From the NCBI GenBank assembly GCA_024222685.1, contig JAAEOZ010000102.1, positions 1-51,367 on the forward strand: DNA of 51,367 bases, read 5' to 3'. Positions 41,701-44,636 of the stretch are shown in pieces. Source of the DNA: Gammaproteobacteria bacterium. GTDB lineage: Bacteria; Pseudomonadota; Gammaproteobacteria; GCA-001735895. Position 1 is the first letter of the stretch, and each line of letters begins with the position of its first letter. A program made the position numbers and the translations under genes. The notes beneath the pieces were generated by a model, which was not told the DNA's origin, ran no database searches, and saw only the letters and a program-made list of their open reading frames with translations.

Positions 41701-43629
41701 ATGAAAGATTCTGCTTTCCCAATCCAACTACTTAATGAAAGAAGATTGTCTATTCTTACAGCAGCAGGTTTTCTCCTCCTATTACTGTCTTCCCTCTGGC
41801 TCTACTGGCCAGGATTATCGGGGACATTCCTGCTGGATCATGAGCTGTGGATTGGCCCGATCGGTAGCCACGGAGGAGTAGTAGACTGGGAAACCTTCAA
41901 GCTCTACCTTTTTGAAGAACCTTTCAAACTGCATAACCGCTACCTGGGGCGCCTGACCTTTCTTATTGATGACCAGTACTGGCCAGCTCCTCCATTTAAC
42001 TTTAAGCGTACTTCCCTGCTAATCCATTTATTAAATGGCAGTTTGCTATTCGCTCTTTGCTTACAGATAGCGCGAATTCTCGATCTTTCAAAAAATCGTA
42101 GTTGGGGTTTTGCACTGGCAGCCTCAGCGATATGGATTTTGCACCCGCTCAACCATTCAACCGTGCTTTATGCTTCTCAGCGCATGACCGTGGTGGCTGC
42201 TTTTTTTATTCTTCTGGCTCTTATCACCTATATTGCAGGTCGAACGCGGATTGTCCAAAACCCCCGTTTTGGAGCCGCGCTCATTGTTCTATCTCTGTTT
42301 GTTCTCACCGCACTTGGAGTACTAAGTAAAGAAATTGCCATAATTATACCTTTATACGTGATACTGCTGGAGTTTACATTACTTAGAAACCATGATCGTT
42401 CAACCCTGTGGTATTGGCTAGCATCGATAGGTATCGGACTACCCTTATTGCTTGGGCTAATTTATGGGTTTACTCGGTGGGAAGGCCTTTTCGTTAATAG
42501 CTACCTGTTTAGAGATTTTACATTGACTGAACGCCTACTAACTCAGGGTCGCGTCCTGGCAGAGTACCAACGCCTGATCATTCTCCCCTCATTGGAAGGC
42601 CTGGGCATATTTCATGACGATTTCGCCGTATCTCGAAGTTGGCTCGAACCCGCATCAACGCTGCTAGCGTGGATAATACACCTGATGTTGATCATTGTAG
42701 CAGTCGTATGGCGTCACCGAATCCCTATGATCTCTTTTGCAATTCTATTTTTTTACATCGGGCATCTGCTGGAATCAACAGCAATTGGCCTGGAAATCTA
42801 TTTCGAACACCGAAACTATGTACCTATGTTAGGAATTTGTCTCGCCACGGCCTATTATTTGATGCGTCCCAGGAAACATTTGAAAATCCTCTGGCCATTA
42901 ACGGCCATGTCGATTGTATTGTTACTTGCTTTTATGACACGGGTAAACACTACGGTCTGGGAAGATCCCGAACTTCAAATAGAAATTGCATTGATTGATC
43001 ATCCTGAGTCCAAACGAGCCCAAGGATATTGGCTTGAAAGCCTTATTGCAAAAGGCAGCCTTTCGAAAGCGAATTCAGTGGCAAACACTCTGATTGACCT
43101 TTCTCCCAACCTAATTAGTCCCTATCTCCAGAAAGCTACTCTACAATGCCTGACTGGTAAAGACATGCAACCACAAATCAGTAAGCTATTAATGATTGCG
43201 CCACTATCAGGTCGAGACACAGCCGCTGCAGGCAATATTAGAAATTTAATGATTGCATCTGATTCACTTGGCTGCCTAACTACACAATCGAATTTTTGGC
43301 TGGAACTTGGCCAAGGTTTATTATCCAGTGAAAGGTTTACCGCTGACGTAAAATCGGCACAAAGCGCTATTAGAATGATTACCAGTTATTTATCATCTAA
43401 AGACATGACGTCTGTATCTGCAGAACTAATGGAAGAAACTTTGATTAAGATACCAAGTCAGAAATTGGCAATTGCCGTTGCTCGAATTTACACCTACTTG
43501 AAAAATGTAGAGAGGGCCAAAAATGCTATACGGATTGCAAAGGAACTTAGACCACCTTTTACTGCAACTAGGGAAAAGTCAGATATGACTATAAACAATT
43601 TGGAAAAAAAGATAGCGCAAATAAATTGA
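41701..43629 (+). CDS. Polytopic GT-C-fold glycosyltransferase-like protein (PMT/TMTC/TfpW-like) with a C-terminal TPR-like helical-repeat domain
   Basis: 642 aa with about 10-12 TM helices over residues 15-400. There is an acidic first-loop motif FLLDHELW, plus HLLNGSLLFAL and HPLNHSTVLYASQRMTVVAAFFILLAL, as in PMT_2/DUF1736-type enzymes (recognised from memory). The C-terminal ~230 aa are helical repeats. Confidence 0.7.
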   Translation: MKDSAFPIQLLNERRLSILTAAGFLLLLLSSLWLYWPGLSGTFLLDHELWIGPIGSHGGVVDWETFKLYLFEEPFKLHNRYLGRLTFLIDDQYWPAPPFNFKRTSLLIHLLNGSLLFALCLQIARILDLSKNRSWGFALAASAIWILHPLNHSTVLYASQRMTVVAAFFILLALITYIAGRTRIVQNPRFGAALIVLSLFVLTALGVLSKEIAIIIPLYVILLEFTLLRNHDRSTLWYWLASIGIGLPLLLGLIYGFTRWEGLFVNSYLFRDFTLTERLLTQGRVLAEYQRLIILPSLEGLGIFHDDFAVSRSWLEPASTLLAWIIHLMLIIVAVVWRHRIPMISFAILFFYIGHLLESTAIGLEIYFEHRNYVPMLGICLATAYYLMRPRKHLKILWPLTAMSIVLLLAFMTRVNTTVWEDPELQIEIALIDHPESKRAQGYWLESLIAKGSLSKANSVANTLIDLSPNLISPYLQKATLQCLTGKDMQPQISKLLMIAPLSGRDTAAAGNIRNLMIASDSLGCLTTQSNFWLELGQGLLSSERFTADVKSAQSAIRMITSYLSSKDMTSVSAELMEETLIKIPSQKLAIAVARIYTYLKNVERAKNAIRIAKELRPPFTATREKSDMTINNLEKKIAQIN

Positions 43630-43676
43630 GATCTGTGGATGAATCAGCTAGCGTAGCTTCTCAAATGCGAGGTGTC

Positions 43677-44636
43677 ATGAATAAGCCAATAAAACTTATC
43701 ATCCAAATTCCCTGCTTTAATGAAGGCCAGTCATTACCACAAACCATCCAGGACCTGCCTAAAACCGTAGAGGGTATTGACTGTATTGAAACACTAGTCA
43801 TCGATGACGGAAGCATCGACGAAACCATCGAGGTTGCACAAAAGCTTGGTGTAACCCACATTATAAGCAACAAGCACAATATGGGCCTCGCTAAAACCTT
43901 TCGTCGCGGCCTTGATGAATGCCTGAAACTGGACGCAGATATTATTGTCAACACAGACGGCGATAATCAATACGCCGGAGAAGACATTGAAAAACTGATT
44001 CAACCGATATTAAATCACGAGGCCGATATCGTTATCGGAGACCGCGAAACACAGAAGATTCCACACTTTTCGAGGACGAAGAAACTCCTCCAGGCATTAG
44101 GTAGCGCCGTTGTCCGGAGACTGGCGGGCATCCATGTGCCAGACACGGTCAGTGGATTCAGAGCTTTGTCCAAAGAAGCTGCCATCAAACTGAACATTGT
44201 ATCCAACTATAGCTATACCACTGAAATGATCATTCAAGCCGGGAAGAGGGGTATAAAAGTTTCATCGGTGCCGATAAAAACCAACCAGGTAAAACGGAAA
44301 TCAAGATTATTCAAAAACATACCCGACTTTATTATTAAACAAATGGGCACAATCATACGTATGTATGTCATGTATCAGCCTTTAAGGTTTTTTTTCTATA
44401 TCGGATTGACACTTTTCATTTTCGGCTTATTACCTGTCATACGTTTTGTCTACTTTTTCTTTACCACAAACGGTGAAGGACATATACAATCACTGATCCT
44501 TGGTGGAGTTTTACTGATGATAGGTATTGTTGCTTTTCTTGCCGGCTTCCTGGCAGATATTATTTCTTACAACCGGCAGCTTCATGAAATAACATTAGAA
44601 AAAGTGAAGCGATTAGAGCTTAACCAAAAAAAGTAA
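43677..44636 (+). CDS. GT2-family polyprenyl-phosphate glycosyltransferase (GtrB/ArnC/DPM1-like) with a C-terminal TM hairpin
   Basis: IQIPCFNE, VIDDGSIDET and NTDGDNQY are followed by two hydrophobic helices. The ATG at 43677 follows GAGG. The alternative TTG at 43626 would overlap the upstream stop by 4 nt. Confidence 0.85.
   Translation: MNKPIKLIIQIPCFNEGQSLPQTIQDLPKTVEGIDCIETLVIDDGSIDETIEVAQKLGVTHIISNKHNMGLAKTFRRGLDECLKLDADIIVNTDGDNQYAGEDIEKLIQPILNHEADIVIGDRETQKIPHFSRTKKLLQALGSAVVRRLAGIHVPDTVSGFRALSKEAAIKLNIVSNYSYTTEMIIQAGKRGIKVSSVPIKTNQVKRKSRLFKNIPDFIIKQMGTIIRMYVMYQPLRFFFYIGLTLFIFGLLPVIRFVYFFFTTNGEGHIQSLILGGVLLMIGIVAFLAGFLADIISYNRQLHEITLEKVKRLELNQKK

Follow-up and report, generated by a model that had tools for sequence, protein, structure and literature searches.

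Only two types of enzyme encoded next to pilA have been characterised so far, TfpO/PglL and TfpW, and the pilin glycosylation that they carry out alters the interactions of pili with phages, immune recognition and surface behaviour. Enzymes of the first type (TfpO/PilO and PglL), encoded directly after pilA in group I Pseudomonas aeruginosa and in Acinetobacter, are of the Wzy_C/O-antigen-ligase kind and use oligosaccharide donors carried on undecaprenyl diphosphate. TfpW of P. aeruginosa is a protein of 646 amino acids with 11 transmembrane (TM) helices and a periplasmic C-terminal tetratricopeptide repeat (TPR) domain, and its gene lies directly 3' of pilA; it carries a DDX motif in periplasmic loop 1, which is reported to be essential and in which mutations abolish glycosylation, and a YX6PFX7P motif in loop 4 (bioRxiv 10.1101/2020.04.19.049825). 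The same study describes TfpW as an oligosaccharyltransferase needed for pilin glycosylation, models it on ArnT and lists pilA-adjacent homologues in Azotobacter, Acinetobacter, Teredinibacter, P. indica and Kingella (bioRxiv 10.1101/2020.04.19.049825). Pilin glycosylation via TfpW and TfpO guards against pilus phages (PMC11841053). Here we describe a pair of genes that follows pilA in a 51,367-nt stretch of DNA (the window) from a metagenome-assembled gammaproteobacterium. The first encodes a 642-residue membrane protein with the glycosyltransferase C (GT-C) fold, the second a glycosyltransferase of family 2 (GT2), and in our judgment the pair is a genuine and so far uncharacterised version of TfpW-type pilin glycosylation, with a lipid-phosphate sugar made by the GT2 as its donor. 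Three genes are central to this argument:

41049-41462, + strand: pilA, type IVa major pilin of 137 amino acids, the proposed acceptor (PF00114, Pilin, 1.7e-12; PF07963, N_methyl, 3.7e-11)
41701-43629, + strand: putative inner-membrane transferase of 642 amino acids, GT-C fold, TfpW-like (residues 1-421, 11 TM helices; residues 422-642, periplasmic TPR tail)
43677-44636, + strand: predicted GT2 polyprenyl-phosphate glycosyltransferase of 319 amino acids with a C-terminal two-helix membrane anchor (PF00535, 1.1e-21; alternative TTG start at 43626)

Architecture of the 642-residue protein and its likeness to TfpW

The open reading frame (ORF) for the large protein begins 238 nt after the pilA stop codon. 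Its product is identical to the GenBank entry "hypothetical protein GY806_03050", and with thousands of homologues the ORF is not a chance one. An AlphaFold2 model of the full protein, based on an alignment of 50 sequences, reached a predicted local distance difference test score (pLDDT) of 90 and a predicted template modelling score (pTM) of 0.88. The helices of this model, hydropathy and the charges of the loops place 11 TM helices within residues 13-421, in line with the 10 to 12 estimated in an initial annotation of the locus. Acidic loops (residues 41-97, 295-318 and 355-375) alternate with basic loops (226-234, 337-341 and 388-396), and because of this alternation and the shortness of the N-terminus we assign the N-terminus to the cytoplasm and the tail to the periplasm. 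The 221-residue tail is built of TPR-like helical repeats. The window protein itself has no TPR match above the Pfam thresholds; TPR families of Pfam are matched by 36 of 50 relatives, and a search of the Protein Data Bank (PDB) with the family profile, like a Foldseek search with the full-length model, returned TPR structures only. Two cysteines in the tail are nearly invariant, which fits a periplasmic location, and the tail as such suggests a protein substrate.

Since TPR proteins swamped the full-length Foldseek search, residues 1-426 were modelled again on their own (pLDDT 90.4, pTM 0.92). The top 12 PDB matches of this TM domain were all GT-C proteins, including STT3 of yeast and human (6ezn_F, 8pn9_A and 6s7t_A), PglB (5ogl_A) and PIG-U, and they were followed by Pmt4 (9i5k_A) and ArnT (5ezm); query TM-scores ranged from 0.39 to 0.49 and probabilities from 0.57 to 1.0. 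With the TPR matches of the family, these results bear out the description of the protein as a GT-C fold joined to a TPR tail. Two features had been singled out in the initial annotation as damaging to this view, a model resembling an O-antigen ligase or polymerase and the lack of an acidic first loop. What we found was no ligase or Wzy-type structure among the TM-domain matches, no Pfam match to Wzy_C in the protein and an acidic residue, D46, in loop 1.

The protein had also been called TMTC/PMT-like, and the strings HLLNGSLLFAL (residues 109-119) and HPLNHSTVLYASQRM (residues 148-162) had been connected with PMT_2 and DUF1736. No Pfam match upholds this connection. At E<=0.1 the window protein matches neither PMT_2 (PF13231) nor DUF1736 (PF08409) nor PMT (PF02366), and neither these families nor Wzy_C nor any other family for the TM domain is among the 25 commonest families in 50 relatives searched against Pfam at E<=10. 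NCBIfam holds no model for the protein. A profile of the TM region alone found no PMT, ArnT, STT3 or other GT-C match among PDB sequences at E<=10, and whether the full protein, the full-length profile or the TM-only profile was used as query, PDB chains yielded TPR matches or nothing. Because Pfam and NCBIfam provide no match to PMT_2, DUF1736 or PMT, we keep "TMTC/PMT-like" as an architectural label only: the combination of GT-C and TPR parts holds, and membership in those families is not supported. A cyanobacterial pilin Ogt (PMC9306852) was considered as a relative and rejected as a GT41 enzyme.

The two strings, and FLLDHELW at residues 43-50, sit on invariant or nearly invariant columns of the family (D46, H109, H148, P149, Q160 and R161). 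Further positions of this kind are R80, K210, E358 and F368-Y373, among sequences that are just 30-40% identical. D46, which is nearly invariant, lies inside the 57-residue first periplasmic loop after TM1, where the family consensus reads FLLDD[FY] and about 90% of the relatives have D-D-x.

Judged by architecture and genomic context, and by the published description of TfpW (AAM52060.1), the 642-residue protein resembles this enzyme most, and the fit is a close one that suggests homology. In TfpW of P. aeruginosa / P. paraeruginosa group IV (Pa5196, PA7; PSPA7_5160) we find the same position 3' of pilA, nearly the same length (646 against 642 residues), 11 TM helices, a periplasmic TPR tail, an acidic motif within periplasmic loop 1 and YX6P in one of the late periplasmic loops, as well as GT-C templates and pilA-adjacent homologues in several genera. 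In the window protein, where half of the TfpW loop-4 motif is thus present, YX6P runs from Y289 (invariant) to P296 (nearly invariant). The initial annotation had cited TfpW as a separate precedent and held that no characterised arrangement was of this kind; this was overstated, as the published description fits point for point and it is the donor pathway that differs. TfpW uses a D-arabinofuranose donor that is made via DPPR synthase, DprE1 and DprE2, with a GtrA-like protein, whereas a GT2 occupies this place in the window; TfpW also has the full YX6PFX7P motif and DDX rather than D-H-E, and TfpX is not found at the window. No gene for DPPR synthase, DprE1 or DprE2 was found in the window or among 128 same-strand ORFs downstream of the GT-C gene in related loci. 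Entries from P. aeruginosa, Acinetobacter and Teredinibacter were likewise absent from the best 120 homologues, with the window protein and proteins of Phytopseudomonas argentinensis and of Moraxellaceae as queries. The searchable literature on pilins and GT-C enzymes deals throughout with TfpW and D-arabinofuranose and does not describe a version coupled to a GT2, which is why we file the pair as an uncharacterised TfpW-like variant.

Size of the family and its linkage to pilin genes

An exhaustive profile search at E<=1e-30 counted 16,077 clusters (50% identity); lengths among the best 150 run from 598 to 708 amino acids, and all but one are single near-full-length matches. When one genome per GTDB species was scanned, relatives turned up at no fewer than 595 loci, of which the best 80 were examined (numbered with the prefix L below). 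A pilin gene lies within 1.5 kb upstream in 44 of the 73 loci with enough upstream sequence, on the same strand in 35 and divergently in 9. Pilin genes number 0.52 per kb in the 1.5 kb just upstream of the GT-C gene, compared with 0.044 per kb at distances of more than 3 kb, an enrichment of about 12-fold that spans orders from Pseudomonadales to Magnetococcales. According to the ORF maps, pilA, pilB, pilC or pilD is present in 61 of the 80 loci; L003, L019 and L045 add pilA by tblastn alone. The order pilS-pilR-pilA-GT-C that characterises the window recurs in L003, L018, L033, L062, L068, L071, L074 and L079, and in the other typical context pilD-pilC-pilB on the minus strand is followed by pilA and the GT-C gene. 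A tblastn search of a plasmid collection gave no match. The GT-C fold having been found and the orthologues being tied to pilin genes, pilin glycosylation as first proposed stands on both of these counts, and fold, topology, the classes of the enzymes and domains, and conserved synteny can be treated as observations.

Tandem pilins occur together with tandem GT-C paralogues in L052, L067, L069, L074 and L080, and in several genomes two pilins are followed by two such paralogues. Such tandem paralogues suggest cognate pairs of pilin and transferase, or several glycoforms. The GT-C/TPR gene is present as two or three tandem paralogues also in L040 (5971-11709) and L051, and two genomes have three. 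In the Woeseiaceae and their relatives (L002, L008, L011, L012, L027, L031 and L046), the GT-C/TPR gene converges on a minus-strand pilA-pilB-pilC-pilD cluster that is followed by an ORF of 200-220 amino acids; loci of the Woeseiaceae type also have the GT-C/TPR gene with neither pilA nor a GT2 adjoining it.

The GT2 partner, the downstream genes and a proposed pathway

The window GT2 may begin at TTG 43626, which overlaps the preceding gene by 4 nt, or at ATG 43677, which leaves a gap of 47 nt and has GAGG 6 nt upstream; gene calls in three relatives use the equivalent of the ATG. The ORFs, coordinates and strings given in the initial annotation are all present in the sequence. The protein has a GT-A domain with the DXD-type motifs VIDDGS and NTDGDNQY and two hydrophobic C-terminal helices (residues ~244-262 and 273-291). 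Its top NCBIfam matches are AglJ (1.6e-32), PpgS, a dolichyl-phosphate (Dol-P) hexose transferase, PgfS (1.4e-12) and ArnC, all below the equivalog cut-offs, and its closest solved structures are the dolichyl-phosphate mannose synthase (DPMS) of Pyrococcus (5mlz, 7e-14) and ArnC. These matches and the TM hairpin support the predicted assignment to the class of polyprenyl-phosphate sugar synthases (GtrB/DPM1/ArnC/AglJ), as had been proposed. A GT2 gene follows directly on the GT-C gene in 29 of the 67 loci with enough downstream sequence (tblastn). The ORF maps contain 34 co-located GT2s, every one of them (34/34) with a C-terminal TM hairpin, and these match the families and structures just named (AglJ, PpgS, Dol-P-hexose transferase, PgfS, ArnC and DPMS) plus GtrB. 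The usual partners (L003-L079) are about 60% identical to each other and have the motif MDADGQH. The window GT2 is at most 30% identical to them and is kept at 74-77% identity in L081-L083; in view of this divergence, the slot appears to be filled, in the clade of the window, by another member of that enzyme class. To judge from these identities, the donor synthase of that clade looks like a non-orthologous replacement.

The two genes stand within a longer series on the + strand (pilS, pilR, pilA, the 642-residue ORF, the GT2 gene, galE and genes for a methyltransferase, a GT4, a second GT2 and a 500-residue protein), the other features of which are as follows:

37821-39515, + strand: pilS, from the ORF map; forms with pilR a two-component pair that regulates pilA
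39512-40840, + strand: pilR, from the ORF map
40959-40974, + strand: sigma-54-type -24/-12 element TGGCAT-N5-TTGCA, read from the consensus only, ~75 nt 5' of the pilA start
41485-41514, + strand: intrinsic-terminator hairpin of pilA, 13-bp stem with a T run (U-tailed), from the sequence and a terminator scan
44773-45747, + strand: galE, UDP-glucose 4-epimerase (TIGR01179, 1.8e-131), a possible, non-conserved supply of sugar nucleotide
46172-46963, + strand: class I S-adenosylmethionine (SAM) methyltransferase (PF08241, 2.6e-16), possibly glycan-modifying
47706-48959, + strand: GT4 glycosyltransferase (PF00534, 7.5e-39), a recurring companion of the GT-C/GT2 pair
48956-49786, + strand: second GT2 of 276 amino acids, from the ORF map, membership uncertain
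49787-51289, + strand: soluble protein of 500 amino acids with no family match, membership uncertain

The element before pilA appears, as read from the sequence, to fit control of pilA by PilS/PilR. The terminator scanner assigns the pilA hairpin to the minus strand, since its stem is flanked by a run of A and a run of T and can be read as a terminator in both directions. PilA itself has a leader sequence and a pair of cysteines at its C-terminal end.

The reading that we favour, with modest confidence, is that the 642-residue protein is a TfpW-type pilin O-glycosyltransferase fed by an undecaprenyl-phosphate sugar that the GT2 makes. From the features above we infer the acceptor, the donor lipid, the identity of the sugar, the flipping step and the physiological role. 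At the cytoplasmic face, the membrane-anchored GT2 would transfer one sugar from a nucleotide sugar to undecaprenyl phosphate. The product would then be flipped by a housekeeping flippase, by a Wzx-type protein, the gene for which lies in close relatives at a position just past the end of the window, or, following a proposal made for TfpW, by the GT-C protein itself. With D46, in the first periplasmic loop, as its catalytic acidic residue, and with its periplasmic TPR domain gripping PilA, the GT-C enzyme would pass the sugar to a serine or threonine of membrane-embedded PilA prior to pilus assembly. For their expression, the two genes would probably depend on transcripts that start under PilR/sigma-54 control and run on through the pilA terminator; read-through of this kind is reported for pilin accessory genes, and a terminator between the pilin and the accessory genes is a conserved feature of such loci (PMC11841053). 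The likely benefit would be diversification of the pilus surface, for instance as protection from pilus-specific phages, as with TfpW and TfpO.

A first alternative, which retains PilA as the target, concerns the size of the glycan. The GT-C/TPR protein may be an oligosaccharyltransferase that acts en bloc, on a glycan primed by an AglJ-like GT2, extended by the GT4 and the second GT2, modified by the methyltransferase and exported by Wzx, in analogy to the Dol-P-based Agl pathway of Haloferax, to which a methyltransferase and a Wzx-like protein (AglR) belong as well. GT2 is the most frequent family among the 128 downstream ORFs (35), ahead of class I SAM methyltransferases (14) and GT4 (13). 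A GT4 gene directly follows the GT2 gene in seven loci; in four (L004, L018, L050 and L054) the product is 30-35% identical to the window GT4 (E 1e-48 to 1e-56), and in L068, L073 and L074 the matches are weaker. The methyltransferase is 86% identical in L081/L082 and its family (PF08241) recurs downstream in other loci, while the second GT2 and the 500-residue protein are conserved at 78-86% in L081/L082. The order pilA-GT-C-GT2-methyltransferase-GT4-second GT2-unknown is conserved in the window clade, with 74-86% identity from the GT2 on, and in the 84%-identical relatives a Wzx-type gene (PF01943) comes after an unknown protein of 493 residues (L081, 9253-10725; L082, 8761-10233). The window ends, at 51367, just short of the equivalent position. 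Wzx-type genes also follow the GT2 in L076 and sugar-nucleotide genes in L062. L076 is Phytopseudomonas argentinensis LMG 22563, which, like strains of Stutzerimonas (P0129 and P0194), is a culturable carrier of pilA-GT-C-GT2. Moreover, the best structural matches of the TM domain are oligosaccharyltransferases, the best NCBIfam match of the GT2 is AglJ, and TfpW itself has been described as an oligosaccharyltransferase. Set against this, the downstream genes vary from locus to locus and may be part of a neighbouring polysaccharide cluster with no relation to the pair, in many loci the GT2 stands alone, and the 80 loci contain, within 6-kb flanks, just 7 downstream candidates for polytopic membrane proteins, few of them of the Wzx type. 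To our knowledge, there is no established bacterial route that uses oligosaccharides on a monophosphate carrier. We regard transfer en bloc, the main rival of the favoured reading, as unlikely, if by no means negligible.

These downstream genes also bear on the word "monosaccharide", which the initial annotation had used of the pathway and which went too far, given that GT4 and SAM methyltransferase genes recur after the GT2 in independent loci and that the window clade runs on to a Wzx-type flippase; the pilin glycan may be larger than one hexose, and a short modified oligosaccharide is a live alternative. A supply of sugar nucleotide by GalE, suggested at the same time, fares no better, because galE is confined to the window: in L081/L082 the methyltransferase gene comes immediately after the GT2 gene, and in L083 the place is taken by a gene of the UDP-GlcNAc 2-epimerase type (Epimerase_2). 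The core of the pilin-glycosylation proposal survives, and the TMTC/PMT family label, the monosaccharide and the GalE link carry little weight in it. The observation that no GtrA-like ORF accompanies the pair was confirmed: none resembling GtrA or ArnE/F was seen between 43 and 51 kb, tested neighbours gave no Pfam match to GtrA, and DprE1, UbiA and GtrA-type proteins are all missing from the 128 downstream ORFs. Small ORFs after the GT2 in other loci were examined as GtrA candidates and discarded, as they encode cytochrome c or have no match, and the 500-residue ORF at the end of the window was rejected as a flippase, being soluble and without a family match. This ORF, which is 78% identical in L081/L082 and has no Pfam match, lies in the stretch of lowest G+C in the window (0.34). 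In L062 (7982-11488), from an Alcaligenaceae metagenome-assembled genome, pilS-pilR-pilA-GT-C is followed by genes for a GDP-mannose 4,6-dehydratase, an epimerase/reductase and a Wzx-type flippase, with no GT2; from the predicted products, this is a third kind of donor module.

Evidence against the pathway, other targets and related systems

Several points weigh against the proposed TfpW-type pathway. First, the E-values of the GT-C matches in Foldseek are modest (0.016-1), and a tie at the sequence level to a solved or curated GT-C family was not found with Pfam at E<=10 or with PDB profiles. Second, the likeness to TfpW is one to its published description, and the full YX6PFX7P motif is found by a regular-expression search in 0 of 498 family proteins. 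Third, where most of the family has D-D-x the window protein reads D46-H47-E48 (41836-41844), and D-H-E or D-H-Q is found in the relatives that are 81-87% identical to it. To these may be added the low identity of the window GT2 to the usual partners and the absence of a visible flippase gene within the window. Finally, in 21 of the 63 loci with both flanks, or about one third, there is neither pilA within 1.5 kb nor a downstream GT2. The clade with D-H-E/Q is the same one that carries the divergent GT2.

The loci that lack both partners lend some support to a second alternative, according to which the GT-C/TPR and GT2 proteins act on other proteins, on lipopolysaccharide or on exopolysaccharide, and the pilin locus is simply a hotspot for horizontally acquired glycan genes. 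The Gtr and Arn systems, which have the same two classes of enzyme, modify glycolipids. The content of downstream genes is variable, and between 43 and 51 kb G+C drops to 0.34-0.41 from about 0.45. Over 43001-51000 in particular, it is 0.34-0.41 apart from about 0.46 at 46-48 kb (the methyltransferase and the start of the GT4), with about 0.45-0.49 in most of the window; this drop across the glycosylation genes would suit a variable glycan island that is subject to horizontal exchange. A target other than pilin is nevertheless improbable, in view of the 12-fold enrichment of pilin genes in the adjacent 1.5 kb from Pseudomonadales to Magnetococcales, the joint duplication of pilin and GT-C genes, and the protein substrate suggested by the TPR tail; in addition, loci without an adjoining pilA mostly border pilB-pilC-pilD. 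As a whole, we conclude that the pair is widespread and, by this analysis, most likely glycosylates the pilus subunit.

The replacement of the second loop-1 aspartate by histidine, considered with the loss of glycosylation in DDX mutants of TfpW, could also mean that the proteins of the D-H-E clade are non-catalytic and serve as TPR-based pilin chaperones or assembly accessories in the manner of TfpY, which we think very improbable, because D46 and all the other invariant positions are kept, the D-H pair is itself conserved throughout the clade, the adjoining polyprenyl-phosphate GT2 is retained at 74-77% identity, and PMT-type GT-C enzymes have D-E and not D-D.

With TfpW-type glycosylation of pilin thus preferred, it is of interest to compare the pair with more distant systems. 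In the three-component systems (GtrA/GtrB/GtrC, ArnC/ArnE-F/ArnT and the CsbB-GtcA-YfhO type), too, a C-terminally anchored GT2 loads polyprenyl phosphate with a monosaccharide that a GT-C enzyme then transfers outside the cytoplasm, but the acceptors are O-antigen, lipid A and teichoic acid, where here the acceptor is most likely pilin, and the GT-C protein of the window has a TPR tail and no linked flippase gene of the GtrA or ArnE/F type. The DPM1/Ppm1-PMT and TMTC1-4 systems of eukaryotic and actinobacterial O-mannosylation likewise combine a synthase for Dol-P- or polyprenyl-phosphate-linked sugar with a GT-C protein O-glycosyltransferase, and TMTCs share the succession of an N-terminal GT-C part and C-terminal TPRs; Pmt4, as noted, is among the structural matches. 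Here the likeness is one of architecture and fold class only, PMT, PMT_2 and DUF1736 being unmatched in 50 members (E<=10). TfpO/PilO and PglL share with the window pair its proposed role in pilin glycosylation, and differ from it in their ligase-type fold and donors. The Pgf system of Streptococcus mutans (PgfS, PgfE and PgfM1/M2) and the Agl system of Haloferax (AglJ to AglB) use a GT2 of the same class, a 4-epimerase and one or more GT-C transferases on surface proteins, yet they belong to other phyla or domains, their acceptors are adhesins or S-layer asparagines, and the window GT2 scores well below the curated equivalog cut-offs.

These comparisons permit a wider reading, which we put forward tentatively and hold to be somewhat doubtful: that the TM domain represents a very large GT-C family, without a Pfam or NCBIfam model, of O-glycosyltransferases dedicated to pilin, with TfpW as one specialised offshoot and with most members working on lipid-monophosphate sugars made by a GT2, often with elaboration by GT4 and methyltransferase enzymes. 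If so, bacteria would possess their own equivalent of the DPM1-PMT/TMTC route of eukaryotes and the Agl route of archaea; it would diversify the pilus surface, and pilin and transferase genes would duplicate, and exchange donor modules, together. Should the pathway proposed for the window prove correct, TfpW-like enzymes would not be a Pseudomonas curiosity bound to D-arabinofuranose but the tip of a large family, in Gammaproteobacteria and beyond, with a lipid-phosphate sugar synthase of its own. The pair would then offer a portable module of two genes (three with pilA) for the study of TPR-based acceptor choice by a GT-C enzyme, and a testable source of antigenic diversity of pili among environmental bacteria. 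It would also provide annotation at the Pfam level for thousands of proteins named "tetratricopeptide repeat protein" or "hypothetical". These are the names that members carry at NCBI, and IMG names a few of them 'protein O-mannosyl-transferase' (P0070, P0100 and P0343).

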